From: Coriobacteriia bacterium
GTDB lineage: Bacteria > Actinomycetota > Coriobacteriia > Anaerosomatales > PALSA-660
Direction: 5' to 3'
DNA: 64,000 nucleotides
NCBI GenBank assembly: GCA_036507895.1
Contig: DATCIG010000013.1
Coordinates: forward strand, 26,573 to 90,572
Shown here in pieces: positions 9,641-62,771 of the stretch. The position numbers and the translations under genes are program-made. Under the pieces are notes generated by a model. The model ran no database searches. It had not been told where the DNA came from and saw only the letters and a list, made by a program, of their open reading frames with translations. Positions within the stretch are counted from its first letter, which is position 1, and each line of letters begins with the position of its first letter.

Positions 9641-9652
9641 GCGGCTTTCCTC

Positions 9653-10996: not shown

Positions 10997-11189
10997 CCCG
11001 GCTAGCCTTTCGGTCGGTGGCGGGCGCCCGCTGGAGGCGCCTCTCGGGGAGAGCGCCAAGTCGGCGCTGTCACATGCGCCGATCGTAGCACCAGCGCGTG
11101 CCGGGGGGTCGCTCCGCGCCGAACCTCGACGGAACGACGTCGGGGCCGGACCGCCAGGCCCGGCCCCGTGGGGCATCGTCGTACCGCTC

Positions 11190-11543
11190 CTACGAGGCGG
11201 GCACTCCGGCAAGCGCCGCCTCGGCCGACTGCAGCCGCTCGATCACAAGCGCACACGCGACCGGCGCCTGCTGGAAGAGCGGCAGCTCCGCGCACCCGGC
11301 CCGGATCGCATCGCCGAGTTCGGCGTCACCGAGGTTCCCGGTCACCCACGCCGCGAGAGCGTCTGCCGAGAACACCGGATCGAGCCCCGTGGTCACCCTC
11401 ACGAACTCGGCGACCGACAGGATCGGCACCGGCTGGAACCCGCCGTGCTTGCCCACGAGGCTCACGTGGAAGCGGTCCTCGTACGGCTGCTCGGCGACGA
11501 AGCGCTCTGCCGCCTCCGGGGTCATCGGCTCGAATCCGGCCAT
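11190..11543 (-). CDS. Hypothetical 117-aa protein translationally coupled to the AOR gene
   Basis: MAGFEPMTPEAAERFVAEQPYEDRFHVSLVGKHGGFQPVPILSVAEFVRV.... The ATG at 11543 overlaps the AOR TGA (TGATG). Balanced, non-Arg-rich composition. No family recognised. Confidence 0.55.
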   Translation of the reverse strand: MAGFEPMTPEAAERFVAEQPYEDRFHVSLVGKHGGFQPVPILSVAEFVRVTTGLDPVFSADALAAWVTGNLGDAELGDAIRAGCAELPLFQQAPVACALVIERLQSAEAALAGVPAS

Positions 11544-13621
11544 CACGCGACCCCCAGCTTCTTGGCTTCTTCGAGGACATCGGCCACGTTCTCCAGGTCC
11601 AGGCCCTTGAGGGTCTCGCGCGTAGGCCATCCGGACTTCGAGTCCCACCCTTCGAGGGCGTAGAAGCGCGTCTTGAACTCCTCGAACCCGGCGCGATCGA
11701 TCGAACGGCCGACGCAGTTGATGTACTCCCACTTGCCGTCGACCTTGCCCGCCATCGGGTAGAGGGGCCCGACAAGGCTCGTCTCGAGCTTCTTGTCGTA
11801 GATGTACGACGCGAACTTGACGATGTCGCGGTGCCTGCCCTGCAGCGCCCAGATCGCGTTGTCCAGGTTGAAGATCCGGCGACCGAGTTCGATCCCCTTG
11901 GCGAACGTGATGTCCTGCCCGGTCACGGCGTTCCAGAACTTCGGCTCGCCGTCCCCGGTGATGCCCACGTTGTCATCGCGGTTGTAGTTGGTGAAGTCCG
12001 GCCAGCGGAAGTCGCAGTACAGCGCGCTCTGCTTCCAGAAGCGCCCGTAGTGGCCCTGCCACACGACCAGCTTGGCGATCGACTCCGAGTAGATGTTCTC
12101 GGTGCTGAAGTCGAGCATCGCGGTGTCACCCGCGTACGGCACCATCTTCGACGAGGCGATCTTGGCGTACTCCTCCGCCGAGACGGGCATCGCCTTCCCT
12201 ACCATCATGTGCTTGATGACGCTCCAGAAGTTGGTGTTGAAGCAGTGAAGGTTCATGTCACGTTCACCCATGATCGATCCATAGCCCCACTCGATCTCGG
12301 CGCGCGGATCGTAGCCGTGGTTGGCGTATCCCCAGTACGGGAAGTCGAGGATGCCCGCGGCGAAGTCCTTCTCGAGACGGCCCCACTTCTCGGCAGCGCG
12401 CACGAAGCCATGAGCAAGGTCCTCGCCGATGCCCTGGCGGTAGGCGATCTTGGTGATCAGGTCCACGGCGAAGTCGGCCTCACCGACACGCGACATGTCG
12501 AGGTCGGTGTCGATCTCCTTGCCGGCCCCGAGCACGCCCATCTTGCCGAGCGCGTAGAGGTAGCCGATGCCCTGCATCAGCTCGTAGGAGTTGACGCCCA
12601 TCTTCTGGACGAGGTCGGTGGCGATGAAGGAGGCCTCCGTGCCCTTGCCGTGCGCGAGCACGTCGAAGGCCTTGTACATCGAGGTCTCCTGGCAGGAGGA
12701 CTCGTTCGCGATTCCGGTATCGAACCTCGCCCGGCACCCGTTGATGCAGCCCTGGCACGCCTGAGGCCCCTTGGCTCCCTTCGGAGGGGTGCCGTACATG
12801 AGCACGGGCGCCGGGTCGACGCCGAAGCTCGGCCCATTGGGATGGGCCGGCTGGCCCGGCTTGGCGGCGTATTCGTCCTTGGCCCACAGGCGTGCGTTGA
12901 ACAGCCCCGCGGGGTCGGCCACCTCGACAGAGCCGGTGCCGACGACGCTGATCGCCTTGAGGTTCTTGGATCCGAAGACCGCGCCGAAGCCGCCTTGGCC
13001 CGCAGCGTTCCCAGCATCGTGCACCAAGCAGCCGAGGGTGGAGAGGTTCTCGCCCGCGGGGCCCGTGGTGATGATCGCGGGCTTCTGCGTCGTACGCCCG
13101 CCATCGCGGCTCTTGCCGACCTCGGTCCACCCGTGGATCTCATCGTCCTTCTGCTTCCAGATGAGCTTCTGGGTCTCCTGGGTGTCCTTGCCCCACAGGC
13201 CAGCAGCGTCGCGGAAGACGACCTTGTCGTTGACGATGTCGATCCAAACGGGCTTGTCGGCCTTGCCCTCGAGGACGATGCCGTCCCAGCCCGCGTACTT
13301 GAGCTGTCCGCCGAAGCGGCCGCCGAAGTTGGAGCGCGTGAACCAGTTGATCGGGTACGACGTGGCGCCGATGCCCTGCACCTCGACACGACCGGATGCG
13401 GAGGGCACCATCGTGCCGCTGAGCGGCGAGGTCATGATCGTCACGACGTTGGCGGGGTCGAGCCCCGATACCGTCTTGTCCTTGCAGAGGTCCCAGAACA
13501 GGGCCGAGCCGATACCGTGGCCGCCTCCCCATTCCGCGTACTTCTCGGTCTCGATGGCCGAAGACGTGCGAGCGGTCAGATCCAACCTGAGGATCTTCCC
13601 GGCGTATCCACCTGTTGCCAT
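11543..13621 (-). CDS. Aldehyde:ferredoxin oxidoreductase (AOR) family tungsto/molybdopterin enzyme, long (about 692 aa) form
   Basis: AOR N-terminal signature MATGGYAGKILRLDLTARTSSAIETEKYAEWGGGHGIGSALFWD, plus GFGAVFGSKNLKAISV and C-terminal AOR domains. ATG at 13621 with GGAAGG 7 nt upstream. No signal peptide. Confidence 0.9.
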   Translation of the reverse strand: MATGGYAGKILRLDLTARTSSAIETEKYAEWGGGHGIGSALFWDLCKDKTVSGLDPANVVTIMTSPLSGTMVPSASGRVEVQGIGATSYPINWFTRSNFGGRFGGQLKYAGWDGIVLEGKADKPVWIDIVNDKVVFRDAAGLWGKDTQETQKLIWKQKDDEIHGWTEVGKSRDGGRTTQKPAIITTGPAGENLSTLGCLVHDAGNAAGQGGFGAVFGSKNLKAISVVGTGSVEVADPAGLFNARLWAKDEYAAKPGQPAHPNGPSFGVDPAPVLMYGTPPKGAKGPQACQGCINGCRARFDTGIANESSCQETSMYKAFDVLAHGKGTEASFIATDLVQKMGVNSYELMQGIGYLYALGKMGVLGAGKEIDTDLDMSRVGEADFAVDLITKIAYRQGIGEDLAHGFVRAAEKWGRLEKDFAAGILDFPYWGYANHGYDPRAEIEWGYGSIMGERDMNLHCFNTNFWSVIKHMMVGKAMPVSAEEYAKIASSKMVPYAGDTAMLDFSTENIYSESIAKLVVWQGHYGRFWKQSALYCDFRWPDFTNYNRDDNVGITGDGEPKFWNAVTGQDITFAKGIELGRRIFNLDNAIWALQGRHRDIVKFASYIYDKKLETSLVGPLYPMAGKVDGKWEYINCVGRSIDRAGFEEFKTRFYALEGWDSKSGWPTRETLKGLDLENVADVLEEAKKLGVA

Positions 13622-13677
13622 GTCACTACCTTCCAAGTCAGCCGCGATCGGTCGTCTCGTGCGCGATCGTGCGGCGA

Positions 13678-14442
13678 TCAGTGTGCGGACGGTGCGGTTG
13701 CGGGTGCGGAGGGAGCGACCTTGCCTTCATCGTCGATGGCAAAGCCGAGCGCCGCCCAACCCGCGTCGCGCAAGTTGACGTCGTAGCCTCGATCGGACTG
13801 CAGCGGGACGTCTTTGGTGAAGCTGATCGCGCCGACCGGGCAGACGGCTACGCACGCCTGCTGACCGCCCGGTCCGCCATCGGCGTCCATGAACGGAGTG
13901 TCGAGGCACAGGTCGCACTTCTGCGCGTGTCTGTCCTCGAAGTTCCAGTCGGCGCGGCTGGCGTCGAAGGGGCACGCGTTCACGCACCGCTGACATCCCA
14001 CGCACTTCGCCACGTCGACCGTACGGACGCCGGTCTTCTTGTCCACGTGCAGCGCGGTCGTCGGGCATGCCTCGACGCATGCGGGTGACGGGCACTGGCG
14101 GCACTGGGAGATGGCCTTGTCGTTCGGGTACTTCGCGAACGGGTCCTGCACCACCTGGATGCGGGAGAGCGACAGGCTCTGGACGCCGTGATGCGTGAGC
14201 GAGCAGGCCATCATGCACGTGTTGCAGCCCTGGCACTTCTTCGAGTCCACCAGCAGATAGCCCCCGGACGCGGGAATGGCGAAGACCTCGTCGGGGAGCA
14301 GGAATCCCTTGAAGAGGGAGCCGCCGAGGACGACGCCCAAGCCCACCCCGCCGAATCCCGTGAGGAACTGCCTGCGAGAGATCGTGCCCGCATGCTCGGC
14401 AGGAACGGCCGTCTCCGCAGGGTCCTTGTCCTTATCAACCAT
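13678..14442 (-). CDS. Tat-signal 4Fe-4S ferredoxin-type subunit (DmsB/NrfC/HybA-like, multi-cluster)
   Basis: Twin-arginine motif (ISRRQFLTGFGGVGLGVVLGG). Cys clusters CQGCNTCMMACS, CRQCPSPACVEACP, CVGCQRCVNACP and CDLC...CVAVCP. The ATG at 14442 overlaps the upstream stop. Confidence 0.9.
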   Translation of the reverse strand: MVDKDKDPAETAVPAEHAGTISRRQFLTGFGGVGLGVVLGGSLFKGFLLPDEVFAIPASGGYLLVDSKKCQGCNTCMMACSLTHHGVQSLSLSRIQVVQDPFAKYPNDKAISQCRQCPSPACVEACPTTALHVDKKTGVRTVDVAKCVGCQRCVNACPFDASRADWNFEDRHAQKCDLCLDTPFMDADGGPGGQQACVAVCPVGAISFTKDVPLQSDRGYDVNLRDAGWAALGFAIDDEGKVAPSAPATAPSAH

Positions 14443-15242
14443 CAGTTGTTCCCTTCAGAATCGTCAGTGCCCGCCGCAGCGTCCGCCCCTGGCTCGATGT
14501 AGCCGAGCTCAGCGAGCCAACCGGCGTGCTCATGCTTCGCGTACTCGAGGTCCACGTAACCCGTGAACATGGAACGCAACACGGGCCAGCTCATGGGCAG
14601 GACGGCCGCGAAGAACACGTGTGCGAGGAAGAATGCGAGCATCGCAACGGTCGCGATGTCATGCACGGGGGTCACGATCGCCATCGCCTGCACGGGGACG
14701 TCGACCGCGTGCGCCGCAACCTTGAGCAGCCCCGTGAGGATGATCAGCACCGTCGAGGCGAGCGCGAGGATGTAGGCCATCTTCTCGCTCTCGAAGTACT
14801 TGCGCTCGGGCGGCATCGTGAACTTCTTGAAGCCGAGCAGGAGCCCGTAGTGCCGCTTGGTGAATCCGATCGCGTCCTTCGTCGGCAGATGCTCCCTGAA
14901 TCGCTTCTTCTCCAGAAGCGTGTTCGCACCGTAGTAGAAGGTGCCGAACAGAAACACGACCGCCGCCGCGAAGTGGACGTCCATCGTGGCCCACACCGGC
15001 TCGCCGCTCCCGACGAGCGCAGGCACGAACCAAAGTCCGAGAAGGATGCCGCTGACCAGCAGCACCGCCGTTCCGATCCCGTGCGCCCAATGCTCGAGGA
15101 TCGCCGCAGCGTCGTGCCTGAGCACGCGGTCGCCCTCTACCACCGGGTCGCGCCGTTTGGTGAGCCCCGCCGCCAGAACGCCTACGAACGGAGCGAGCCA
15201 CACGAGCCACGTGGCCGAGTCGAACAAGAGCTCTCGTTCCAT
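14442..15242 (-). CDS. Integral membrane b-type cytochrome subunit (FdnI/PhsC/Ni-Fe hydrogenase cytochrome b-like)
   Basis: Several TM helices with conserved His positions (AAILEHWAHGIGTAVLLVSG, TMDVHFAAAVVF, AAHAVDVP...PVHDIATVAMLAFFLAHVF). First gene of the module. Confidence 0.75.
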   Translation of the reverse strand: MERELLFDSATWLVWLAPFVGVLAAGLTKRRDPVVEGDRVLRHDAAAILEHWAHGIGTAVLLVSGILLGLWFVPALVGSGEPVWATMDVHFAAAVVFLFGTFYYGANTLLEKKRFREHLPTKDAIGFTKRHYGLLLGFKKFTMPPERKYFESEKMAYILALASTVLIILTGLLKVAAHAVDVPVQAMAIVTPVHDIATVAMLAFFLAHVFFAAVLPMSWPVLRSMFTGYVDLEYAKHEHAGWLAELGYIEPGADAAAGTDDSEGNN

Positions 15243-15504
15243 ACAGATACCCCTTCCCCTCGTACTTGGATGTCCGGTCCGCCCACGAGAGGAGCAATTC
15301 CGATGCCATGCTACCCACTATTCCATTTCGGGTAGCAAGATAACCTCACTGACAATCAGCCGCACCTTAGCAACTCGCTGAAGTGCATCTTTCTTTCCTA
15401 CCCATGATTCTCCCGCAGGGTTTTGGTGATGCGGCGGCCCTGCCAGGCGTGCTAGTCTTCGTCGAAAGGGCGGCCAGTGCCGCTCTCGAGGAGATTGGGT
15501 AGAC

Positions 15505-16920: not shown

Positions 16921-19134
16921 CTACATACCCCGCTCGCGCATGTTCTTGACGATGAACGAGGCGACGTCGATACCGTGGGTCCGGCGCCCGAAGCCCGCGT
17001 CCATGCCCCACGAACGCGCAAGCTCGTCGGTGACCTGGGTCCCGCCGGCGATGAGCAGTACGCGATCGCGGATGCCCTTCTCACGGGCCAGGTCGGCGAG
17101 CTTCTCCATGTTGCGGCGGTGCATGTCCCCGTGCGTGATGATCGTGGAGAGCAGCACGATCTGCGCGCCATGCTCGATCGCGGCGTCCAGCAGCTTCTCA
17201 ACGGGCACCGACGTCCCGAGATGCGTGCAGGTGAAGCCCCACTTCTCGAGGCCGCCGTGCTTGATGTCGAGGATCTCGTACATGCCTACGGAGTGTTCGT
17301 CCATGCCGACCGTGGCGGCGACACAGCGCAGCCCACGCTCTGCCACGAACTCCCTGATCTCCTCGTCGGAGAGCGACTCGGGCGGCTCGGGGATGACCAG
17401 CGTCTTCGGGTCGATGGCGGTCGCCAGGGTGCCCTTGAGCTCGATGAGCGTGCCTTCGGCGGGGTGCATGACCTGTCGGTGGATGACCTCGCACTCGGTG
17501 AGGTTCATCGAACGGCCCAGCTCGAGCGCGGCGGCCTCGGCGACGCGCTGCCCGACCGGCAGGAACATGGTCACGACCACCACGCCGTCCCCCGCCCACT
17601 GCACCTCCGGCTTTATGAGGCCCTTCTCGCGCAGCTCGGCGGTGGCGGCCAGACGCACATCCACGTTGTCCTCGGGATCGAGCTCGTCGGTGTACGGCAC
17701 CTTGTCGTGGTCGCACAGCGTGCAGCCGCCGATGGGATCGCACGCTCGACCCGAGCCCTCGGGAAGGTGGTTCACGCCGAAGTGGTGGCACACGGGCGCC
17801 ATGTAGTCGCCGGCGCGCTCCACGATCGTCCCGACCGCCACGCCGCCTGCCGACTTCCGCACGATGCCGTCGTCATTGGTCTCCGGGTACTCGCCGGAGT
17901 CCACGAAGTACGCGTCTTCCACGGAGGCGAAGTACCCGCCGTCGCAAACCATCGCCTCGAGGAACAGCACCGCGCGTTCCTTGATCTCGCGCACGCGCGC
18001 CTTCAGCTCGGGGCTCTCGCGGTCGAGCTTGATCATGTCGCGCAGACCGTCCATGCCGACGAGAGACTGACGCGCCGTGTTGACCGCGTGCACGTTGTTG
18101 TAGTGCCACGGCACGTTGCGACCCTCGTCGGGCGTGATGGTCGACTGGATGTCCGCGCTAGTCAGCCGCGAGATCATCATGTTCATGACCTGCGAGACCG
18201 TGGCGTCGCGGCCGTCCGACTCCATGTAGCGGGTGTTCTGCTGGGCACGCATCTTGTATTCGCCGAAGAGGTCACGCAGTGCGACGGCGTACGGCAGGTC
18301 CATGCGCATGCAGGGTGCCGGCGACGCGTCGGGCGGCACGGTGGACAGCGCGATGTTCTCCTTCGCCATCCCGACGGAAACAGAGAAGGCGCAGTTGATG
18401 GCGTGCTGGACGAGCAGCTCGGGCATGACCTTCCACGCCTTCACCGCGGTCGCGTTCGCGTTGTGTGCGCCGTCGATCTGCAGCATGCCGACGGACCCCA
18501 TGACCAGCTTCGCCACGGCCGCGTCGACGAAGCTGCGGTACATGTTGATGTTGCGGTACAGCACGTTGTACTGCGGATCCTGGTGGGCGCCGTTGACGCC
18601 CTCCTCGGCGAACATGACGGCCATCTCGGGGCCGGCGACGCCGCTCACGTAGCTGTGGAAGTTGATCGGGCGGCCGACCTCATCCTCGATCAGGTCGAGT
18701 GCCTTGCGCGTGAGGCGCACCTGCTTGCGCGTGACGGCGATACCGCCCGTGCCTTCGGGGGTGCCCTCGATCAGTCCGTCGATGTGGCTCTGACCCGCAG
18801 TGCGGATGACCATCATATGGTCGGCCCCGTGCCACGCGGCCATGCGCATCCTACGAATGTCGTCCTCGACGCGACCGGACGCGATCTCGGTGGTGACGAC
18901 GCAGTCGGGCTGCGGGTCGATGTCGTCGAAGTAGTGCGCCGCCGGCAGTGGGATGCTGCGCTCCAGACCCTTCGAGGTCTCCTTGTAGTCGAACTCGTAG
19001 AGGTGCTGGTCCGGTACCTGCTCTCGCCAATGCCAGCCCGAGCGGCGGGGACGGTAGTGCTCCAGCCCCTCGAGCAGACCGGCGACGTCGAGCTTCTCAT
19101 TCGGATCCAGAGCGCGCATGTCATCGTTGCTCAC
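16921..19134 (-). CDS. oraE: D-ornithine 4,5-aminomutase large (E) subunit; PLP and AdoCbl binding
   Basis: Aminomutase TIM-barrel region plus a C-terminal B12-binding Rossmann domain with a DxHxxG motif (VGMDEHSVGM...GTSVP...LSTIITHGD). Start set to the GTG at 19134, which overlaps the oraS TGA (GTGA) and has GGGGAGG 6 nt upstream. The alternative ATG at 19119 has no SD. Confidence 0.9.
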   Translation of the reverse strand: MSNDDMRALDPNEKLDVAGLLEGLEHYRPRRSGWHWREQVPDQHLYEFDYKETSKGLERSIPLPAAHYFDDIDPQPDCVVTTEIASGRVEDDIRRMRMAAWHGADHMMVIRTAGQSHIDGLIEGTPEGTGGIAVTRKQVRLTRKALDLIEDEVGRPINFHSYVSGVAGPEMAVMFAEEGVNGAHQDPQYNVLYRNINMYRSFVDAAVAKLVMGSVGMLQIDGAHNANATAVKAWKVMPELLVQHAINCAFSVSVGMAKENIALSTVPPDASPAPCMRMDLPYAVALRDLFGEYKMRAQQNTRYMESDGRDATVSQVMNMMISRLTSADIQSTITPDEGRNVPWHYNNVHAVNTARQSLVGMDGLRDMIKLDRESPELKARVREIKERAVLFLEAMVCDGGYFASVEDAYFVDSGEYPETNDDGIVRKSAGGVAVGTIVERAGDYMAPVCHHFGVNHLPEGSGRACDPIGGCTLCDHDKVPYTDELDPEDNVDVRLAATAELREKGLIKPEVQWAGDGVVVVTMFLPVGQRVAEAAALELGRSMNLTECEVIHRQVMHPAEGTLIELKGTLATAIDPKTLVIPEPPESLSDEEIREFVAERGLRCVAATVGMDEHSVGMYEILDIKHGGLEKWGFTCTHLGTSVPVEKLLDAAIEHGAQIVLLSTIITHGDMHRRNMEKLADLAREKGIRDRVLLIAGGTQVTDELARSWGMDAGFGRRTHGIDVASFIVKNMRERGM

Positions 19135-19493
19135 AGCGCGCCTCCCCACTTGGCCTCGACCAGATCCCACCCGTCGCCCGCGGCCAACCCGGCCGCCGCG
19201 ATCGGGGCGTCGCATTCGAGCTCCTGCGAGCAGTACAGGACGATGTTGCCGGCGCCGTGCCCGAGCAGCCCGCGCTTCTCGCACTCCGCCACCACGGCCA
19301 TGCACGTCTGCGAGTCCACGCCCATGCGCATCAGGACGCTGCGCTCGATCGACGGGGATGTGTTGGTGCGGGCCAGCTCGACGAGCGGGTCGACGACCTG
19401 CTGCGCCAAGGACCAGAAGCGGGCCTCCAGCTGCTCGTCGGTCAGCTCCTGAAGATGTGCGCGAGCCTCTTTGAACGTGTCTTCACGAGCCAA
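19131..19493 (-). CDS. oraS: D-ornithine 4,5-aminomutase small (S) subunit
   Basis: 120 aa from the TTG at 19493, with AAGGAGG 6 nt upstream and 1 nt after the ortB stop. Sequence AREDTFKEARAHLQELTDEQLEARFW.... Its size and position between ortB and oraE fit OraS. The longer ORF part overlaps ortB. Confidence 0.8.
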   Translation of the reverse strand: MAREDTFKEARAHLQELTDEQLEARFWSLAQQVVDPLVELARTNTSPSIERSVLMRMGVDSQTCMAVVAECEKRGLLGHGAGNIVLYCSQELECDAPIAAAGLAAGDGWDLVEAKWGGAL

Positions 19494-19494
19494 G

Positions 19495-20907
19495 TCAGGC
19501 CTCCTTGAGTGCCGAAATGATCGCCTCGACCGTCGAGGCGTCGGTGTTCGTGTCGCTGGCGAGGAACTCGATGTCGTCGGTCGTCGGCGCGTAGCCTTCG
19601 CCGGCGTGCGCGAGCGCGTTGCGCACGTAGCTGCGCCGCATCTTGCCCATGTCGAAGTCCTTCGCACGGATCTGCTCCGGACGCTCCGGTATCACGATGC
19701 TCTTGCCCGGGACGCTCTCCGTCGGGTCGCCGAGTCGCACTTCGACCCCGTTGGCGCGGGCGAAGTTGAGCTGCGCCCAGTGGTGCTTGCCGGCACCCGT
19801 GTACTCGGTCTCCTGCACCACGACGGTCGCGTCGCGCGGCAGGTCGCGCGCCAGCGAGATCGCCGCGGCCATCGCAGTATTGCCCGACGGCCCGCGCTCG
19901 AGACCCTCGAGCTTGGCCATCGCCTCGGTGACGTAGAAGACCTCGCCCTGGGTGACGGTGAGATACCGGTCCATGTAGCGCAGTGCCCGTGCGGCGTTGC
20001 GCGGCACGTCCGCGCGGTCGGGCCAAGTCGCGAAGGGCACGCCGAAGCCCGTGTGGCCCGTCGTGAAGCTCTTGCGATTGAAGTCAGCGTCCGAGGCCAT
20101 GTGCAGGCCCGACAGGTCCACAGAGGCGCTCACGACCTGCGTCGAGGTCGCGCCCGCCCGCCGCAGCCCGCGCGCGGTGCCGGTGGTGTTGCCGCCGCCC
20201 GCGTGGGTGACCACCACGTGCGTGGGCGGTGCGCCGGTGAGCGCCGTCATCTCCTCGGCGAGTTCCCACCCGAGCGACTCGATGCCGGAGATACCGAAGG
20301 CGGAGTACAGCGATGCGGCGAGGTAGCCGGTGTCGTCGAGCAGTTCAAGCATGTGAGAGAAGAGCTCGGGACCCACGGAGAGCTGGATGACCTCGGCGCC
20401 GAACGCCTCGCAGATGCGGGACTTCTCGATGATCTCGGGCTGACCGACGTGGCGCGAGTCGAACGCCTCCTGGACGATGATGCAGTTGAGACTCGCGCGC
20501 GCGGCCTGGCTGGAGACGGCCGCGCCGTAGTTGCCGGACGTCGCGGCGATGACGCCGGCGTAGCCCTTCTCCTTGGCGACATGGATGCTGATGCTCGCGC
20601 GGCGGTCCTTGAACGATCCGGCCATGTTGGCGGCCTCGTCCTTCACGAACAGCCGCGCCCCACACCCCGGCTCGGCGTACGAGCGCACCAGGTCGGTGAG
20701 GTTGCGCAACTCGAGTAGCGGCGTCTTGCCGACACCTGCCACGAGCTGGATACCGATGATCTGCTCGAGCGAGTAGCCGTGAGCCGACATCATCGCCTCG
20801 TAGTCGAACGCGATGGGACTGCGCTCGAACTGCGCGTAGTCCATGCCCAGCGCCCGCTTCATGATCTCGCCCTTACGGGCGAGGATGGCCTCGGTCTTGC
20901 CTGCCAT
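19495..20907 (-). CDS. ortB: 2-amino-4-ketopentanoate thiolase beta subunit (PLP, Trp-synthase-beta fold)
   Basis: PLP-Lys motif (NMAGSFKDRRAS) and a glycine loop (ATSGNYGAA). 470 aa from the ATG at 20907, which follows the ortA TGA by 1 nt. Confidence 0.85.
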   Translation of the reverse strand: MAGKTEAILARKGEIMKRALGMDYAQFERSPIAFDYEAMMSAHGYSLEQIIGIQLVAGVGKTPLLELRNLTDLVRSYAEPGCGARLFVKDEAANMAGSFKDRRASISIHVAKEKGYAGVIAATSGNYGAAVSSQAARASLNCIIVQEAFDSRHVGQPEIIEKSRICEAFGAEVIQLSVGPELFSHMLELLDDTGYLAASLYSAFGISGIESLGWELAEEMTALTGAPPTHVVVTHAGGGNTTGTARGLRRAGATSTQVVSASVDLSGLHMASDADFNRKSFTTGHTGFGVPFATWPDRADVPRNAARALRYMDRYLTVTQGEVFYVTEAMAKLEGLERGPSGNTAMAAAISLARDLPRDATVVVQETEYTGAGKHHWAQLNFARANGVEVRLGDPTESVPGKSIVIPERPEQIRAKDFDMGKMRRSYVRNALAHAGEGYAPTTDDIEFLASDTNTDASTVEAIISALKEA

Positions 20908-20908
20908 G

Positions 20909-21232
20909 TCAGCCACCCGCCTTGCGGTAGGCGGCCAGGCGGGCACGCAGGTCGCGGCCTATGGCCGTGAGCTCCGGCGCCGGCCTGCCGAACGTGTGGA
21001 AGTAGCCGGGGTTGACCTCGGTCAGCGTCCCGGTCACGTCGCGGCCGGTCATCGTCTCGACCGAAACGGCCTCACCGACGGAGGCAGAGGCGCGCGCGAA
21101 ACCCTTCACCCACATGCGGAGTGGCTGGGCGGCGGTGTCCTCGGGCAGATTCGTCGCGCGATCGACGGGCTCGAGCAGCACGCGCTCGACCTCCACCCAA
21201 TCCCCCTCGGCACAGCGAGTCACATCGTCCAT
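20909..21232 (-). CDS. ortA: 2-amino-4-ketopentanoate thiolase alpha subunit
   Basis: 107-aa protein (GDWVEVERVLLEP...MWVKGF...GTLTEVNPGYFHTFG) between ord and ortB, matching OrtA in size and position. Confidence 0.75.
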   Translation of the reverse strand: MDDVTRCAEGDWVEVERVLLEPVDRATNLPEDTAAQPLRMWVKGFARASASVGEAVSVETMTGRDVTGTLTEVNPGYFHTFGRPAPELTAIGRDLRARLAAYRKAGG

Positions 21233-21245
21233 TTGTCGTCCGTCC

Positions 21246-22262
21246 CTAGGCCGTCGGTGACCAGAATCGAGGAAGCGGCATGTCCACCACGGTCACGATG
21301 CCGGGATTCGCCGCGCCGATGAGCGGGATGTAGTTGCCGATGCTCGCGTAGGTACCCTTGCCGCCCGGGACCTCCGGGGTGTTGGCGACGCTGATGTTCG
21401 GCTCGCCGATCACCTTGATGTAGTCGCCGGTCGTCACGCCCTCGAGGTCCGGGTGGATCTGCTGCGGGTGGACGAGCTCGATCTTGAGAACGCCCTTGCT
21501 GTAGGCCCGTGCGATGTGGCGGCAGCCAGCTACGTTGCCGGGGGCCACGTGCACATGCGGGGTGGAGCGCTCCACCGTGCTCACGATCGGCTCGCGGGTC
21601 TCGACGACCTCGTCGATCTCCCAGCCGAGCGCATAGCCGATCAGGCCGATGGACTCCTGGAACCCGATGTGGCCGACGATCGAGCCGTCGGCGATGCCGG
21701 CCTCGAACTGCTCGACCGTGGTGCCGACACCCTGGCTCGTCATGACTGTGGGCCCGAACGGCGAGAGGTCGTTGACCCGGGCGGCCTCGATCCGGTCGAT
21801 GCGGAGGCAGGCGGAGCTGAGCAGGATCGGCAGCGCGTCGAGGATGAAGCCGGGGTTGATGCCCGTGCCGAGGACGCTCACGCCGTGCTCGCGTGCGAGT
21901 GCGTCGACGCGATCGGCCCACGCTGCGTCGCTCGCCCACGGATACGACAGCGTCTCCGCGATGCCGATGACGTCAGCGTCCGCGCGGATGGCGGCCTCGA
22001 CCGGACCGGTGATCTCGTGAAGGTTGCTCGCGGTGAGCACGCACACGACGTCCGGCTTCAGCGCGAGCACGGCGTCGTGGTCCGCCGTGATGGCCACGTC
22101 ATGCTCGTAGTGCTCCCCGAGCAGACCCCCGAGTGTCATCCCGTGCTTCTCGGGGTGACGATCGATCACGCCTACGAGTTCGATATCGTTCGGGCGGTCG
22201 AGGATGTAGCGGAGCAGGCCCTGGCCCATCATGCCTGCGCCCCAAACGGCGACCTTGATCAT
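21246..22262 (-). CDS. ord: 2,4-diaminopentanoate dehydrogenase (NAD(P)-dependent, DapB-like fold)
   Basis: Rossmann N-terminus MIKVAVWGAGMMGQGLLRYIL. AAGGAGG SD before the ATG at 22262. First gene of the ord-ortAB-oraSE operon. Confidence 0.8.
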   Translation of the reverse strand: MIKVAVWGAGMMGQGLLRYILDRPNDIELVGVIDRHPEKHGMTLGGLLGEHYEHDVAITADHDAVLALKPDVVCVLTASNLHEITGPVEAAIRADADVIGIAETLSYPWASDAAWADRVDALAREHGVSVLGTGINPGFILDALPILLSSACLRIDRIEAARVNDLSPFGPTVMTSQGVGTTVEQFEAGIADGSIVGHIGFQESIGLIGYALGWEIDEVVETREPIVSTVERSTPHVHVAPGNVAGCRHIARAYSKGVLKIELVHPQQIHPDLEGVTTGDYIKVIGEPNISVANTPEVPGGKGTYASIGNYIPLIGAANPGIVTVVDMPLPRFWSPTA

Positions 22263-22594
22263 GCGGAGTCCTCCTTGGTGGCATACAGAATCACACGACT
22301 CCTATGCACGATACCTTCCCCGAAGCCGCGGTGACAGGGTCGAGCGGGGGGTGGCGTTCTTCGCGGCGCTTAACTGGGGACTCGGCGACCTACAAGCTCG
22401 GTGGCCATACATCGCGTACGCGGCCGTCGGCAACATCGCTTCCGCGACGGTGGGCGCTTTGTGGGTCGTGCTGCGTCGTCCGGTCGACCTCTGAGGAACC
22501 GTCCCCTACCTCGCGATCGTGGTGGTATTCGCCATCATCGGCGCGATCCAGGCTCGCCAATCGATCGAAGCATGACTAACGAGAACCTCTTCCG

Positions 22595-56714: not shown

Positions 56715-57221
56715 TCACAGTAGTTGGACGTGGCCACCTGCGGCCACCAGAGCACAGACCAGGAGAGCGGCCTGTATCCCTGTTGTGAGCGTGTATGCGA
56801 TCGCGCTGTCACGACCGGCTACCAGATCCCCTCTCCGGATCTCACAGATCGAGGCGATGAAGAGCGTCGCAAGCCCCGCAGACATGGCGGGCACCGACCA
56901 CAGCAGAGAGGTTCCAGCGCTGAGCAGGCCCATGGGCACCGGGCCACGACCCGGCAGAACGATGCCCAAGCCGATCACGATGACGCCCAGGCACAGCGCT
57001 CCTGCCGTGATGGCCGCTGCGATCTTCACGGGCTGCGCGTACCGCGTCACCTGAGGATCGGCCATCCCGGTCTGCTCCCGGGTGTCGGCGAACGCCGCGC
57101 GACTGCGCCGGCTCGAGAAGTAGGTGACCGCTGCCAGCGCCAGCCAGAACGGCAGTCCGCAGAAGGCCCACAAGAGAGCCAGCGCCGACATCCACCAGGC
57201 AACGAAGTACATATCCGGCAT
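56715..57221 (-). CDS. Hypothetical 4-TM membrane protein; paralogue of the adjacent gene
   Basis: MPDMYFVAWWMSALALLWAFCGLPFWLALAAVTYFSSRRSR...DLVAGRDSAIAYTLTTGIQAALLVCALV has the same architecture and shared motifs as 56183..56686. GAGGGG SD. Confidence 0.6.
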   Translation of the reverse strand: MPDMYFVAWWMSALALLWAFCGLPFWLALAAVTYFSSRRSRAAFADTREQTGMADPQVTRYAQPVKIAAAITAGALCLGVIVIGLGIVLPGRGPVPMGLLSAGTSLLWSVPAMSAGLATLFIASICEIRRGDLVAGRDSAIAYTLTTGIQAALLVCALVAAGGHVQLL

Positions 57222-57305
57222 ACCCCTCGCCCCATCCCCCGACCGGGACCATCCATCCGCTCATCTAACTATTACGCAATATGTTATATAGCACACGGCG
57301 TATTA

Positions 57306-57366
57306 GATGAACGGCATTTCAATGCCCAATCAATGTGACGAACGGGGCAATTACGTTGACGAACGG
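57306..57366. repeat. Three direct copies of GA(T/C)GAACGG in an AT-richer intergenic region
   Basis: GATGAACGG (57306-57314), TGACGAACGG (57336-57345) and TGACGAACGG (57357-57366). The last two are 21 bp apart. The repeats lie between the ATPase stop and the start of the membrane-protein pair. Confidence 0.5.
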
Positions 57367-57370
57367 TTGT

Positions 57371-59491
57371 CTAGGCGCGCGTACGCAGCAGCCTGAGCCC
57401 GTTGAGCGTGACCAGCAGCGACACACCCATGTCGGCGAAGACCGCGAGCCACAGCGGCGCATAGCCGAACACGGCCATCACCAGCACGATCGCCTTCGTT
57501 ACCACCGAGAACGCGACGTTGGCGCGGATGATGGCCACGGTGCGCCGTCCGAGCGCGAAGAAGCCGGGAAGCGCGTGGAGGTTCGGCGCCATGAGCGCCA
57601 CGTCCGCGGTCTCGAGGGCGGTGTCCGATCCTGCGGCGCCCATCGCGATCCCGAGGTCGGCCAAAGCGAGCGCAGGGGCGTCGTTGACGCCATCCCCCAC
57701 CATCGCGACGACGCCGCCCGAACGCTGCAGGTCGCGGATCGCATCCATCTTCTGCTCGGGGAGCAGCCGGGCGCGGTACTCGGAGAGCCCGGCGTGTCCG
57801 GCGACCGCCGCGGCGGTCCGCTCGTTGTCACCGGTGAGCATGACGACGTGCGCGATCCCCCCGTCGCGCAGGCGGCGCACGACCGCCGACGCCTCGGGAC
57901 GAACGTCGTCGGCGACCCCGATCAGCCCGATGACCACATCCGCCTGCAGCAACACCAGGACGGTCTTTCCCGCGGACTCGAGCGCTCCGATGCGCGCGGC
58001 CACGTCCTCGGTGAGCGCGCCCGCCTCCCCGGCCAGCAACGGACTGCCGATCGAGTACGCGACACCCTCCACCTCGGCGCGTACTCCCCGACCCGCGATG
58101 TCCTCGAGGCCGATGGCCGCACGCTCCCCGGCCTCGCTGCCCTCAGCACGCAACACCGCCTCGGCGACGGGATGGTTCGACCCGGCCTCGAGCGCGGCCG
58201 CGATCCGCAGTACGCGCGAAGCGTCGCCGTCGCCGAAGGGGTCGACGTCGGTGACCTCGGGGCGGCCGCACGTCAGCGTGCCCGTCTTGTCGAACGCCAC
58301 GACCCGCACCCGCGCGGCGGTCTCCAGGTGCACACCGCCCTTGACGAGCACGCCGTCACGGCTCGCCCGCGTGATCGCCGAGACGATGGCCACCGGTGTG
58401 GATATGACGAGCGCGCACGGGCACGACACGACGAGCACCACCAGCGAGCGATACGCCCACTCGACCCACGTTCCGAGGCCGAACAGCGGTGGGAGCACGG
58501 CGACCAGCACGGCGCCGACGACCACGATCGGCGTGTAGTACCTCGTGAAGGAGTCGACGAGCCGCTGTGACGGCGCGCGCTGTGACTGTGCCTCCTCGAC
58601 GAGGTGGACGAGGCGCGCAAGTGTCGAGTCCGCCTGCACACTGGTGACCTCGACCTCGATCAGACCGTTCACGTTGAGGGAGCCGGCGAATACATGGTCA
58701 CCCGGAGCCTTGTCGACCGGCACGCTCTCACCGGTCACGGGCGCCTCATCGACAGCGGTCGCCCCGGTCCGCACCACACCATCGAGCGCGATGCGCTCGC
58801 CCGGCTTCACGATGAGCAGGTCCCCGGTCACAGCCTCCGCGATCCCGACCTTGAGCTCGATCCCGTGCCGGCGGATCCGCGCCAGCACCGGCGCGAGGCC
58901 GATCAGGTCGCGGACGGAGCGACGGGTACGCTCGAGTGCGCGGCTTTCGAGGAGCTGGCCGAACGCGAACAGGAAGATGATCGTCGCGGCCTCCGCGAAG
59001 TCGCCCAGGGCCATGGCACCGACCACCGCGAGCGACATCAGGACGTTCATGTCGAGTCTCACCACACGCAGCGAGGTCCAAGCGCGCCGAACGGTCACCG
59101 ACCCGCCCGCAACGATCGCGATGACGAATGCGACGACGGCCACACCGTGATGCCCCGTCCATTGCGTCGCGTAGCCGGCCGCCACCAGGATCCCGCTCGC
59201 GGCGAGCATGGACGCGTGCCCGTGCGACTGCCACCAGGAGGGAGTCGCCTCGCTCGCGGGCTCCCCTGCGTCCGTCTCGAGGGTGTGACCCGCGGCGCGC
59301 ACGGCGGCGGCGACCTTCTCGCGAGGGTCGCGCGTCGGGTCGTACTCCAGCGCGAGAACGCCCGACGGGAAGCTCAGGTCGGCCGAGATCACACCATCGA
59401 CATGCTGCACGGACGCCTCCACGGTCCGCGTGCAATCGGGTCAATCGAGCCCGACGACCCGCCAGCGCGCGTATGCGGATGCGCCGCTCAT
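57371..59491 (-). CDS. Heavy-metal (Cd/Zn/Co/Pb-type) P1B ATPase. The full-length reading needs decoding of an in-frame TGA (59441-59443) at the first Cys of the HMA CxxC motif
   Basis: The core (57371..59422) has CPCALVISTP, DKTGTLT, GDGVNDAPAL and eight TM segments. Upstream in the same frame: ATG at 59491 (ATGA overlap with the arsR stop), then MSGASAYARWRVVGLD-TGA-PDCTRTVEASVQHVDGV..., completing a canonical HMA fold. If the TGA is a real stop, the CDS is 57371..59422 from a GTG and lacks the metal-binding loop. Confidence 0.6.
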
Positions 59492-59877
59492 CGCGCCGGC
59501 CCCTCTTCCGCGTGGGCAAGGCCGATGGCGAGAAGGTCGCGCACGTGCTCGTCGGCGAGCCGATAGACCGCGCGCTTCCCGTCCCGCTCGAAGGCGACAA
59601 GGTGCAGGTCGCGCAGCGTACGGAGCTGATGGGACACCCCTGACTCGCTGACGTCGACTATCTCCGCAAGGTCGCACACGCACAGCGCATCTTCGGAGAG
59701 GGCGAGCAGCAGACGCATCCGTGTCGGGTCGGCCAGCGCCCGGAATATGTCGGCCACGCGCGACTGTGCGGCCACAGCCGGCAGTGCGTTCGAGACGCGG
59801 GAGACCGCGCCCGCATCGACGATGCGGGCCGCGCACTCGCCCCGGTCCTGCATGACTTCATCTGAATGGTTGCTCAT
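59488..59877 (-). CDS. ArsR/SmtB family metalloregulator
   Basis: LADPTRMRLLLALSEDALCVCDLAEIVDVSESGVSHQLRTLRDLHLV (wHTH with a CVC alpha-3 metal site). First gene of the arsR-ATPase pair. Confidence 0.9.
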   Translation of the reverse strand: MSNHSDEVMQDRGECAARIVDAGAVSRVSNALPAVAAQSRVADIFRALADPTRMRLLLALSEDALCVCDLAEIVDVSESGVSHQLRTLRDLHLVAFERDGKRAVYRLADEHVRDLLAIGLAHAEEGPAR

Positions 59878-59976
59878 ATGACAGGTTTACCCCATCACGC
59901 GCGGCGAAGCAAGCGGAGCGCTACACTCCGGGTGTGAGGCGACCTTCGGGGCGCCACGACGGAGAGAGGGTCCGTG

Positions 59977-60693
59977 ATGAGCGACCGACCGCAGGATCTC
60001 GGGACCACAGCCGTACTTCCCCCGGCGGGTCCGGACGGGCCACCGAGGACCGCCACTCAGGGCGGCATACCTCCCCGCCGCCGCAAGATCCCGATCTGGG
60101 TGTTCGTCGTCGCAGCCATCGCCGTCGCACTACTTGCGGCGTCGATCGTGTGGTTCGCCACCAGGTCGCGGTCGTCGACCCCGGCCCCGGTCCCGGTCCC
60201 GACGTCCACCGTCGCGCCTGCCGTCATCCCCACGCCCGCGGTCGAGGCGACCGGCCCGATCGTCCCCACGAGCACAGTCGTCGCCACCCCCACGCCGAAG
60301 ACGGTCCGCGAGCCGACTCTGGTCACCAAGGTGACCAAGATCTCCTCGAAGGAATACCGGATCGCCGTCGACTACGTCCAGATCCTGACGGGCAAGGCGG
60401 CCGCCGATGCCGCGACCGCCGCCGGCGAGGAGTCTCCCCCGCCCAACGACTACTTCATCGCGAACACCAGCACGAAGCTCCGGACCTTCTCGCTCCCGGC
60501 AACGGCCTCGATCACGGTCCTGGGCTGGGCCGGCGCCGATGCGACGGCGAAGAAGAAGCTCACCGTCGGGCAGTTCATGGACGTCATGCCCGGAGGGACT
60601 CACCCGCAAGACGAATGGGCGCACGGCTACTACTACGTGACCGTGAAAGCCGGGACGACCGTCACGAAGGTCGAACAGATCTTCTTCCCGTAG
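59977..60693 (+). CDS. Hypothetical membrane-anchored protein with a Pro/Thr/Val-rich linker and a C-terminal globular domain
   Basis: Single TM (IPIWVFVVAAIAVALLAASIVWF), a PT-rich spacer, then about 130 aa ending in a beta-rich stretch (YYYVTVKAGTTVTKVEQIFFP). Start at ATG 59977 or GTG 59974. Confidence 0.55.
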   Translation: MSDRPQDLGTTAVLPPAGPDGPPRTATQGGIPPRRRKIPIWVFVVAAIAVALLAASIVWFATRSRSSTPAPVPVPTSTVAPAVIPTPAVEATGPIVPTSTVVATPTPKTVREPTLVTKVTKISSKEYRIAVDYVQILTGKAAADAATAAGEESPPPNDYFIANTSTKLRTFSLPATASITVLGWAGADATAKKKLTVGQFMDVMPGGTHPQDEWAHGYYYVTVKAGTTVTKVEQIFFP

Positions 60694-60701
60694 GCCGGCG
60701 T

Positions 60702-62771
60702 CTACCGCTTCTTGCGACGACCGTACGCCGAGCCCTTGCGCGCACCGGCCTTGAGCCGGCCGAGCACCTCGTCCTCGCTGGAGCGCTCGACCTGTGCACG
60801 CAGCCGCACGATCTGGTCGCGCAGCCGGGCAGCGGACTCGAAGTCGAGGTTCTCCGACGCGCTCGTCATGTCCTCCTCGAGGGAGGCGAGCAGGCGCATC
60901 ACCTCGTCGCGCGGAAGGCCGGAGAGCTCCTTGGCGACCACGTCGGCGGCGACGGCCTCCCCTTCACCCGAGCGGGCGTAGTCGACGATGGCGTGGATCG
61001 CCTTACGGATCGTCTGAGGCTCGATGCCGTGCTCGGTGTTGTACGCGACCTGGATGGCGCGGCGGCGGTTGGTCTCGTCGATCGCGCTGCTCATCGCCTC
61101 GGTCACGTTCTCCGCGTACATGATCACCTTGCCCGACACGTTGCGTGACGCGCGGCCGATGGTCTGGATGAGTGAGCGGTAGTTGCGCAGGAAGCCGGAC
61201 TTGTCCGCATCGAGGATCGCCACGAGCGAGACCTCCGGGAGATCGAGGCCCTCACGCAGCAGGTTGATGCCGACGAGGCAGTCAAACACGCCGGCGCGCA
61301 GGTCGCGCAGGATGTCGACGCGATCGAACGTGGCAATGTCGGCATGCAGGTAGCGGACGCGGAGTCCCTGCTCGGTGAGGTAGTCGGTGAGGTCCTCGGC
61401 CATCTTCTTGGTGAGCGTGGTGACGAGCACACGCTCGTCGTTCTCGGCGTGCACGCGAACCTCGTGCACGATGTCGTCGATCTGGCCCTTGGTGGGGCGG
61501 ACCTCGATCTGCGGGTCCACGAGACCGGTCGGGCGGATGATCTGCTCCACGATGTACGGCTTGGATACACCGAGCTCATAGTCACCGGGCGTGGCGGACA
61601 CGTACACGAACTGAGGGACCCGCTGCTCGAACTCGTCGAACCTCAGCGGCCGGTTGTCGAGCGCGCTCGGCAGCCGGAACCCGTGCTCCACAAGCGTCAA
61701 CTTGCGACTGCGGTCGCCCTCGTACATGCCACGGATCTGCGGGATGGTGACGTGGCTCTCGTCGATCATGCAGAGGAAGTCCTTGGGGAAGTAGTCGATC
61801 AGGCAGTGCGGCGGCTCACCGGGCTTCCGGCCGTCGAGGTGGCGCGAGTAGTTCTCGATGCCGGAGGTGAATCCCAGCGTCTCGATCATCTCGAGATCGT
61901 AGGTGGCCCGCATCTCGAGACGCTGCGCCTCGAGCAGCTTGCCCTCGCTCTTGAACTGGGCGAGGCGCTCCTGCAACTCCGCCCGGATCCCGGTGACCGC
62001 CTCGCTGAGCCGCTCCGGAACCGTCACGTAGTGGGTCGCGGGCCAGATCGGCACGGACTCGAGCTTGGTCAGCGCCTCACCGGTCACCGGGTCGACCTCG
62101 ACGATCGACTCGATCTCATCGCCGAAGAACTCGATGCGCAGCGGATGGTCGGCGTAGGGCGGGAAGACGTCGAGCACGTCGCCCCGGACTCGGAACGCGC
62201 CGCGCACCAGGTCGAAGTCGTTGCGGTCGTACTGGATGTCGATGAGCCCGCGGATCAGGGCGTCGCGGTCCATCTCGGTCCCCACCGAGACGAACGCCGC
62301 CTGCCCCGCGTAGTCCTCGGGGCTGCCGATGCCGTAGATGCAGCTGACCGAGGCGACCACGACGACGTCGCGACGCGACAGGAGCGCGGCCGTGGCCGCG
62401 TGCCGGAGCTTCTCGACCTCCTCGTTGATCGAGGAGTCCTTCTCGATGAAGGTGTCGGTCGAGGGAACGTACGCCTCCGGCTGGTAGTAGTCGTAGTACG
62501 ACACGAAGTAGACGACGGAGTTGTTCGGCATGAGATCGGCGAACTCCGAGGCCAGCTGCGCGGCGAGGGTCTTGTTCGGCGCCATGACGAGCGTCGGCTT
62601 CTGGACCGCCTCGATCGTCTTGGCCATCGTGAAGGTCTTGCCCGACCCCGTGACGCCCAGCAGCGTCTGGTAGCGCAGGCCATCGCGCACTCCCGCTGCG
62701 AGCTTGGCGATCGCCGCGGGCTGGTCCCCCGCGGGCTCGTACGGCGAGACGACACGCAGTTCGTTGCTCAT
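60702..62771 (-). CDS. uvrB: Excinuclease ABC subunit B
   Basis: [16 protein letters not shown], helicase motifs and the C-terminal UVR domain ([12 protein letters not shown]). Confidence 0.95.

Follow-up and report, generated by a model that had tools for sequence, protein, structure and literature searches.

[quoted passage not shown] A sequence-only reading of the window (the whole 64-kb stretch of Coriobacteriia DNA analysed here) had stated, correctly in the light of these three papers, that E1-E2 ATPases appear in selenoproteome surveys. It had proposed that the N-terminal metal domain of a P1B-type pump contains a selenocysteine (Sec) codon, in a UxxC context, with a SECIS hairpin behind it. 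This main proposal is supported: the TGA is found in all 15 orthologues compared, synonymous sites are frozen at the hairpin and the hairpin is absent from the Cys-form orthologues examined. The gene located at 57371-59491 on the minus strand thus very probably encodes a heavy-metal efflux ATPase of the Zn/Cd/Pb type (P1B-2) that is a selenoprotein. It belongs to a new lineage of an already known kind of selenoprotein, such pumps having figured in computational surveys since 2007, and its novelty is lowered because the E1-E2 UxxC family is already catalogued. The locus comprises the following features:

57371-59491, minus strand: predicted reading frame of the entire heavy-metal ATPase (P1B-2, Zn/Cd/Pb-type), which is 706 residues long and has a single in-frame UGA, read as Sec, at residue 17 (from the translation, the TIGR01525 and TIGR01512 scores and the motifs)
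59441-59443, minus strand: proposed Sec codon, a TGA in the reading frame where the metal-binding loop GLD-[U]-PDC would otherwise have its first Cys
59285-59461, minus strand: HMA (heavy-metal-associated, ferredoxin-like) domain, residues 11-69, with the TGA inside (PF00403; alignments to the HMA domains of ATP7B, CopA and ZntA)
59409-59429, minus strand: proposed bacterial SECIS, a 6-bp stem pairing nucleotides 15-20 with 30-35 (counted from the U of UGA) around the 9-nt loop CGUGGAGGC
58394-58426, minus strand: transmembrane metal-site motif SCPCALVISTP (CPC), by motif location
58271-58291, minus strand: phosphorylation motif DKTGTLT, by motif location
57401-57520, minus strand: N(x)7K (57494-57520) and DxG(x)7N (57401-57433) in the last two transmembrane helices, by motif location
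59488-59877, minus strand: ArsR/SmtB-family metalloregulator gene (PF01022; NF033788, 96.6 bits against a cut-off of 55)

A single minus-strand frame runs from the ATG at 59491 to the stop at 57371 and is broken only by the TGA at 59443-59441. On that strand the letters read ATG(59491) AGC GGC ... GGG CTC GAT TGA(59443-59441) CCC GAT TGC ACG CGG ACC GTG GAG GCG TCC GTG, and the translation gives MSGASAYARWRVVGLD, one internal stop, then PDCTRTVEASVQHVDGV and the remainder of a complete P-type ATPase, in which TGES, SCPCALVISTP, DKTGTLT and GDGVNDAP all lie after the internal stop. With Cys set at the TGA, the N-terminal part scores 42 bits against PF00403 (cut-off 24.8), residues 11-69 covering profile positions 3-61 of 62, and in alignments to the solved HMA domains of ATP7B, CopA and ZntA the TGA coincides with the first Cys of GMxCxxC. 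Upstream, the TGA stop of arsR and the ATG of the ATPase overlap as ATGA (59488-59491), and the arsR-ATPase pair is kept in most related loci. The structural part of the sequence-only reading therefore holds throughout: two ORF pieces forming one frame from ATG 59491 and split by a single TGA, an ATGA overlap with arsR, a complete HMA domain on a P1B-type ATPase, and a TGA sitting on the first Cys of the CxxC loop.

The same triplet serves as an ordinary stop nearby, as it terminates 10 of the 19 Pfam-supported genes of the window, including arsR, whose stop lies 45 nt upstream. Since TGA is a normal stop in these other genes, the recoding would be local and would not reflect an altered genetic code. 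A scan of the window and its flanks for other TGA-bridged coding frames returned only antisense-frame artefacts, plus one known ATPase site (locus L084). An exact-protein database look-up of the 683-aa ORF gave no record, and the database gene call for the pump (P0001) begins four codons further in than this ORF.

The pump scores 583 bits against TIGR01525 (NCBIfam, cut-off 346) and carries DKTGT, TGES and CPC, as well as the N-terminal HMA domain of P1B-type ATPases once the TGA is read as Cys or Sec. It also exceeds the cut-off of the cadmium-family model TIGR01512 (499 bits against 313.5; NCBIfam) and displays CPC, NVAFSVVTK and DMGVSLLVTLN, which places it in the P1B-2 subgroup. In Arguello's 2003 classification, the Zn/Cd/Pb (P1B-2) signature consists of N(x)7K and DxG(x)7N, located in the two final transmembrane helices. 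The ZntA equivalog models NF033775 and NF008262 are matched far below their cut-offs (545 against 1240 bits and 617 against 1005 bits, respectively). Judged by these profile scores, the predicted pump is a member of the subfamily that contains ZntA and is not a ZntA orthologue.

All 15 distinct orthologues that were compared have TGA at the same codon, as GAT TGA CCN GAY TGY. They are 54-83% identical, originate from uncultured Coriobacteriia and 'Actinomycetes' MAGs (soil, peat, sediment) and share the neighbourhood coaE-SLT-uvrB...ATPase...ABC1...amt-uvrA. In 7 of the 15, an extra N-terminal domain precedes the TGA and places it roughly 100 codons from the start of the frame. Just before it, G, L and D are invariant in the 15 orthologues while the Gly and Leu codons differ synonymously; by this codon pattern, protein-level selection evidently acts upstream of the TGA. 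A JGI contig (L001) identical to the window may share its sample and does not count as independent read support.

These comparisons bear on the most trivial explanation of the TGA, a pseudogene or an assembly error in which a TGC-to-TGA nonsense change struck a decaying or mis-sequenced gene. A single base change from Cys would suffice, and neighbouring genes of some related long-read MAGs do contain frameshifts. Yet the same TGA is shared by 15 distinct orthologues, drawn from numerous assemblies and a range of sequencing technologies, which at 54-83% identity are not copies of one sequence; the roughly 700 codons contain no further stop or frameshift, and purifying selection is seen on either side of the TGA. 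Decay of the N-termini of relatives, a possibility that had been raised at the outset, is not what is found, as the frames both upstream and downstream of the TGA are unbroken in the 15 orthologues. The chance that a lesion explains the TGA is vanishingly small, and the comparative data in effect rule out the alternative put forward with the initial proposal, namely a lesion or sequencing error combined with re-initiation at GTG 59422.

Every more distant homologue (at most 49% identity) with a match extending to the motif has Cys aligned to the UGA. Among the 120 nearest protein clusters listed, 41 have Cys at this position and 78 begin just past the UxxC loop. A TGY codon was confirmed at the TGA position in three loci, all of them syntenic Cys-form orthologues, and the Cys-form orthologues are interleaved among the Sec forms. 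Whether relatives carry Cys or TGA at this codon, as had been asked, thus receives a twofold answer: TGA in the orthologues and Cys in the more distant homologues. Three features by which bacterial selenoproteins are recognized are present, namely a UGA conserved with coding sequence on both sides, Cys homologues and a SECIS-like stem-loop downstream. One might still propose that the UGA is recoded to a residue other than Sec (Cys carried by a tRNA-Sec-like tRNA, or near-cognate read-through), the hairpin being the recoding signal. Some bacteria are known to insert Cys at UGA in a SelB-dependent manner, and a conserved UGA with a hairpin would look the same whether SelB delivered Sec or a different amino acid. 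Nothing in the data points to such a system, however; selenoproteins classically show this alternation of Sec and Cys at a ligand of a CxxC motif, and the family is already catalogued as UxxC, so that recoding to another residue appears highly unlikely.

The hairpin itself can be described from the RNAalifold consensus of the 15 orthologues. The conserved stem has 6 bp (GCGGAC/GUCCGU) and begins 11 nt past the UGA. Five of these pairs are invariant and the sixth, closing pair is formed in all 15 sequences (GU in 11, GC in 3, AU in 1). A seventh pair, which in the window lengthens the stem to 59408-59430, is present in only 3 of the 15. A lower stem is formed in 9-12 of the 15, and in the window the UGC/GCA lower stem is part of the minimum-free-energy fold. 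The 9-nt loop of the window, CGUGGAGGC, has the conserved form CGUGGNNNN, in which the 5' half CGUGG is invariant, the 3' half is variable, and G22 and U23 are invariant. The 7-bp stem, 9-nt loop and lower stem first described do exist in the window, but only 6 bp are conserved and the lower stem is conserved in part; the loop said to be G-rich is better described by its invariant 5' half and variable 3' half. No true compensatory covariation was found in the stem by RNAalifold across the 15 orthologues, because the stem is invariant. Rfam gave no match on the hairpin, either at gathering scores or at E values up to 10 for the region, where two sub-threshold matches fall elsewhere.

The worry that such a structure might be at background for this GC content proved justified for folding alone: the single-sequence folding energy (z = -1.25, with 22 of 200 shuffles folding equally well or better) is no better than chance. 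It is because of the comparative evidence, and not because of thermodynamics, that the hairpin stands above chance, synonymous-site freezing being confined to it. Across the gene, an invariant residue of at least fourfold degeneracy occupies 153 columns, and in only four of these do all 15 sequences share one codon (CGG for R, ACC for T, GTG for V and TCC for S). Together the four form the hairpin, on which the lowest-entropy 7-column window of the gene also falls. All 18 TGA loci carry the motif CGGACCGTGGNNNNGTCCG, against none of the 72 other loci compared. The three Cys-form orthologues (L089, L091 and L092) retain the immediate arsR-ATPase-ABC1 order, and the hairpin arms are broken in all of them: L091 and L092 encode the same ARTVEKS peptide with the codons CGA ACC GTC or CGT ACA GTG, and L089 has GCA CGC ACG GCC, encoding ARTA. 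These alignments show the hairpin to be genuine and linked to the TGA.

The loop of the hairpin also contains the GUG at 59422, which suggests another use for the structure. In this scheme, the UGA would be a true stop, the upstream piece a short leader peptide (in relatives, a separate small HMA protein), and the pump would be re-initiated at the GUG without the metal-binding loop, the hairpin regulating re-initiation. Many relatives do have this GUG as the called start of the pump gene; it is invariant in the orthologues, lies 18 nt past the stop, and ZntA-type pumps truncated at the N-terminus are known to stay active. Against this, the stop coincides exactly with the first ligand Cys of an HMA domain that is complete in all other respects and that a split there would destroy, and in the Cys-form orthologues, which lack the hairpin, a single protein extends across this position. 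In addition, no Shine-Dalgarno-like sequence precedes the GUG, and a start codon would not account for the constraint on CGG, ACC and TCC. Obligatory termination with re-initiation is thus very unlikely, and decoding of the UGA as Sec is retained.

Searches of the 64-kb window and of the flanks retrieved, which are a small fraction of each genome, revealed no selA, selB, selD or tRNA-Sec. Specifically, ARAGORN called no tRNA-Sec in the window and 10 flanks, Pfam detected no SelA, SelB or SelD among about 60 ORFs of the window, and tblastn with the E. coli SelA, SelB and SelD gave no match against the window and all loci. A 96-nt 'tRNA-Arg' in one locus (L015) was rejected as a false call within a GC-rich tandem repeat. 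The Sec trait is scored positive in several cultivated Coriobacteriia, and the literature on OPB41/Anaerosomatales makes no statement about Sec genes.

The expression of the pump could then proceed as follows. Translation would start at ATG 59491, coupled through the ATGA overlap to that of the upstream ArsR-type metal sensor. The small hairpin (6-bp stem GCGGAC/GUCCGU, loop CGUGGNNNN, invariant G22 and U23) would recruit SelB and Sec-tRNA(Sec), which would decode the UGA at codon 17 as Sec. The N-terminal HMA domain of the product would have D-U-P-D-C as its metal-binding loop instead of the usual D-C-x-x-C. In such a cytosolic domain, which regulates the pump or receives the metal, a selenolate, softer than a thiolate and of lower pKa, would be expected to tighten the binding or speed the exchange of thiophilic metals (Cd, Pb, Zn, possibly Hg). 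A more elaborate scheme, which seems unlikely, combines decoding and re-initiation in an isoform switch: in the presence of selenium, SelB would read the UGA and yield a pump with a selenolate domain; in its absence, translation would stop and re-initiate 18 nt on, at the invariant GUG of the SECIS loop, yielding a still-active pump devoid of the N-terminal metal site. If so, metal efflux would never depend on selenium, but its kinetics or selectivity would.

If the UGA is read as Sec, public gene calls for the pump are systematically wrong, and this reading restores the metal-binding domain; besides the calls that begin past the loop, a spurious separate small 'HMA' gene is annotated in some loci. 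Here Sec would bind a metal in a regulatory domain that has no redox role, and its TGA codon has been kept at a single chromosomal locus by anaerobic Actinomycetota that span an order-level clade. The interleaved Sec and Cys forms offer a clean natural comparison of the part played by the selenolate in metal sensing or hand-over, and the 15-sequence set is a case in which a putative SECIS is recognized from synonymous-site freezing alone, with matched Cys-form controls.

The catalogued UxxC E1-E2 ATPases and the protein of the window are both heavy-metal P1B ATPases with Sec first in UxxC, and the latter passes TIGR01525. Its assignment to this family relies on TIGR01525 and the U-first UxxC; for the catalogued example ABB15669.1, a Sec in the same HMA loop is suggested by the shared UxxC motif. 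The 'UxxU metal-binding (seleno)protein' model NF041115 is likewise HMA-like with Sec in the metal motif, and is matched weakly (24 bits over residues 10-68, cut-off 95); it describes a small stand-alone protein, about 74 residues long, that contains Sec twice (UxxU), whereas the window protein would have one (UxxC) and is fused to a pump. The SECIS of E. coli fdhF is a hairpin within the coding sequence right after the UGA, with an upper stem-loop starting 11 nt past the UGA and apical-loop G and U at 23-24. The window hairpin, a putative SelB site, has the same 11-nt spacer and invariant G and U at 22-23, but it shows no sequence similarity to that of fdhF, its loop is of 9 nt instead of 4 and no bulged U is evident. 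With ZntA/CadA (1MWY, 4UMV), the pump has a common architecture (N-terminal HMA, CPC, N(x)7K, DxG(x)7N) and a D-C-x-x-C-type loop in which the Asp is kept, ZntA-type models being its best NCBIfam matches; the difference lies in the first ligand, which is Cys in ZntA/CadA and would be Sec here.

The frame of the pump gene is interrupted at a single codon, close to the junction with the upstream gene, and the features of this region are as follows:

59491, minus strand: start ATG of the pump gene, overlapping the TGA stop of arsR as ATGA
59488-59877, minus strand: ArsR-family gene, adjoining the pump gene on its 5' side
59443-59441, minus strand: in-frame TGA, the sole internal stop between ATG 59491 and 57371
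59444-59446, minus strand: Asp codon adjoining the TGA, also examined in L002-L088 (loci of relatives)

On the minus strand, the segment from ATG 59491 to the TGA encodes MSGASAYARWRVVGLD; translation after the TGA begins with PDCTRTVEASVQHVDGVISADLSF and the frame remains open as far as 57371. Once Cys is placed at the TGA, an HMA domain is complete at residues 11-69 (PF00403, 42 bits for a cut-off of 24.8), and the TGA aligns to the first Cys of GMxCxxC in the solved HMA domains of ATP7B, Bacillus subtilis CopA and ZntA. The part located 3' of the TGA carries the P-type ATPase motifs TGES, SCPCALVISTP, DKTGTLT and GDGVNDAP and belongs to TIGR01525 (583 bits, cut-off 346) and to its cadmium-type subfamily TIGR01512 (499 bits, cut-off 313.5). 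Among the NCBIfam models, those of ZntA type match best, yet the pump scores under their equivalog cut-offs. Its last helices contain N(x)7K and DxG(x)7N, a motif pair that marks the Zn/Cd/Pb subgroup (P1B-2). Pfam and NCBIfam identify the upstream regulator as an ArsR/SmtB metalloregulator. As the frame, the HMA domain (score and alignments), the pump family and the regulator are all as described, the claim of the sequence-only reading that an in-frame TGA lies inside the metal-binding loop of a P1B ATPase stands as written.

A protein search was done using the pump with Cys at the TGA as query, and the best 120 clusters were compared. The called start lies just past the CxxC position in 78 of them, 41 contain DCPDC and one is a fragment. 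Where the DNA was fetched, TGA was found in 7/7 truncated calls and TGT or TGC in 3/3 DCPDC calls. Scanning one genome for each GTDB species added ten TGA loci, two of which duplicate loci already fetched, in MAGs labelled Coriobacteriia, 'uncultured Actinomycetes' and, for one of them, 'Eubacteriales'; in the same scan, every homologue at most 49% identical whose match reaches the motif has Cys. All 15 distinct orthologues (54-83% mutual identity) carry GAT TGA CCN GAY TGY and share the neighbourhood coaE-SLT-uvrB...ATPase...ABC1...amt-uvrA, with arsR directly upstream in most. The G-L-D preceding the TGA is invariant, and its Gly and Leu codons vary synonymously. A TGC-to-TGA lesion or a sequencing error, put forward initially as the alternative source of the TGA, is thus excluded, because the codon is conserved in orthologues under intact protein-level constraint. 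Furthermore, TGA is the normal stop of 10/19 Pfam-supported genes of the window, including arsR, so the genetic code is standard and any read-through must be local.

Two of the compared sequences call for comment. Window 57125-61077 is 100% identical to a JGI contig of 3,953 bp (Ga0209125_1012772 of metagenome 3300025600; L001); this contig may come from the window's own sample and hence is not independent support for the TGA. In the long-read MAG contig CAVSCJ010000006.1 (L003/L007), uvrB and the ammonium transporter are each called as two genes (6726-8798 and 20229-21460), probably owing to assembly frameshift errors; its ATPase TGA and hairpin have the same form as in the other orthologues.

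In 15/15 TGA-form orthologues, the Asp codon that precedes the TGA is GAT. Of the 18 columns with invariant Asp, no other is GAT throughout, GAC being overall about four times commoner. The Cys-form orthologue L092 has GAC at this position. The invariant GAT may be required as 5' context for the Sec codon.

The folding energy of the window hairpin alone is unconvincing (z = -1.25). In the codon alignment of the 15 genes, the amino acid is invariant and at least 4-fold degenerate in 153 columns (mean codon entropy of 1.34 bits), and only four of these columns have one codon throughout: Arg CGG, Thr ACC, Val GTG and Ser TCC. These are codons +5, +6, +7 and +10 after the TGA, which build the hairpin, and the lowest-entropy 7-column window of the entire gene lies on it. 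The RNAalifold consensus is a 6-bp stem pairing nt 15-20 with nt 30-35 (numbered from the U of UGA) around a 9-nt loop, CGUGGNNNN; its closing pair is kept as GU (11 sequences), GC (3) or AU (1). The SECIS-like hairpin proposed from the window holds for this conserved, TGA-linked stem; of its extensions, the seventh pair forms in only 3/15 sequences, and the lower UGC/GCA stem is partly conserved, forming in 9-12 of the 15. CGGACCGTGGNNNNGTCCG is present in 18/18 TGA loci and in 0/72 other loci compared. Three Cys-form orthologues (L089, L091 and L092) adjoin the same arsR and ABC1 genes, and the hairpin arms are broken in all three: L091 and L092 encode the same peptide A-R-T-V-E-K-S using GCG CGA ACC GTC and GCT CGT ACA GTG, and L089 has GCA CGC ACG GCC (A-R-T-A). 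By these codon, motif and Cys-form comparisons, the hairpin is selected only when the codon is TGA, matching the prediction for a SECIS. The SECIS of Escherichia coli fdhF has an 11-nt spacer and G23/U24 in its loop; the window hairpin likewise has an 11-nt spacer, with the loop G-U at positions 22-23.

The Sec-bearing HMA is not the first domain in seven orthologues (L010, L011, L013, L015, L084, L085 and L088). It follows an additional N-terminal one of roughly 80-90 residues that has a CxxC too (LYCAQCVEKL, for instance), and the frame reaches the TGA after about 100 codons. In three of them, the position of the additional domain is:

L084, 9719-9982: extra N-terminal domain
L085, 9689-9982: extra N-terminal domain
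L088, 9710-9982: extra N-terminal domain

At least five of the seven (L010, L011, L013, L015 and L084) have a further CxxC domain after the Sec-bearing HMA, e.g. RFRLVGLDCADCA. In gene calls, the first part of the seven appears as a small 'HMA' gene of its own, with the TGA as its stop. Among clusters P0001-P0120, the 78 starting just past the UxxC loop lack an HMA annotation. It looks as though a selenoprotein is systematically mis-annotated in the public gene calls of MAGs and metagenomes. In practice, the chief consequence of reading the TGA as Sec is that the pump's database entries are mostly truncated.

The selenocysteine reading holds, TGA and hairpin being conserved together in orthologues and Cys being found in distant homologues. 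The best-supported model, drawn from sequence comparison, is that codon 17 of this efflux pump of Zn/Cd/Pb type, co-transcribed with its putative ArsR-type sensor, would be decoded as Sec through SelB. The metal-binding domain at the cytosolic N-terminus would then carry a D-U-P-D-C loop; the gain might be a ligand that is softer and has a lower pKa, in a domain that regulates the pump or receives the metal. Sec and Cys forms are interleaved in a crude neighbour-joining tree, too rough for counting events, as would be expected for repeated Sec/Cys exchange. A selenium-dependent switch between the full-length pump and an N-terminally truncated one, re-initiated at the invariant GUG of the SECIS loop, seems improbable.

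The window belongs to the core chromosome of an anaerobic actinobacterium. Besides the pgm-pgk-gap-whiA-cofD-rapZ-uvrC genes, uvrA, amt and P-II, an oligopeptide ABC transporter, the ABC1 kinase, the arsR-ATPase pair, uvrB, SLT and coaE, it contains:

1409-7602, minus strand: chemotaxis cluster (CheA-CheY hybrid, MCP, CheW, CheR with TPR repeats, second CheW)
8561-11242, minus strand: MutL-like (PF13941) and alanine-racemase-fold proteins, further downstream of the ornithine cluster
11543-15317, minus strand: aldehyde:ferredoxin oxidoreductase, 4Fe-4S dicluster protein and cytochrome-b561-like membrane protein in a row
16921-22301, minus strand: ornithine-fermentation cluster

The latter encodes a D-ornithine/lysine aminomutase-like B12 enzyme, a PLP enzyme, OrtA and 2,4-diaminopentanoate dehydrogenase and, with the MutL-like and racemase-fold genes, fits an amino-acid-fermenting anaerobe. 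The three genes of 11543-15317 lie side by side, which points to an oxidoreductase module that is membrane-linked and uses tungsten or molybdenum.

No selA, selB, selD or tRNA-Sec was found in the window or the fetched flanks, which represent well under 1% of each related genome. The 96-nt 'tRNA-Arg(ccg)' that ARAGORN calls in L015 (4550-4645) is not a tRNA-Sec but a false positive, situated within a tandem repeat of GGCTCC/GGCTCG. The description of cultivated Anaerosomatales does not mention Sec genes. The Sec trait is scored as positive in several cultivated Coriobacteriia, namely Eggerthella lenta, Slackia heliotrinireducens, Cryptobacterium curtum and Collinsella aerofaciens (Peng et al. 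2016, PMC5029168).

E1-E2 ATPases do appear in selenoproteome surveys: a UxxC family is listed by Zhang & Gladyshev 2007 (PMC1976440), was counted in 25 organisms and 32 genes (Peng et al. 2016, PMC5029168) and is tabulated in a 2026 review as UxxC, TIGR01525, with ABB15669.1 as example (PMC13188914); according to this review, the role of such transporter selenoproteins is still unclear. Compared with this family by its testable features (UxxC, TIGR01525), the window gene agrees with it. The gene is well supported as a new lineage within a selenoprotein family that had already been catalogued and is experimentally uncharacterised.
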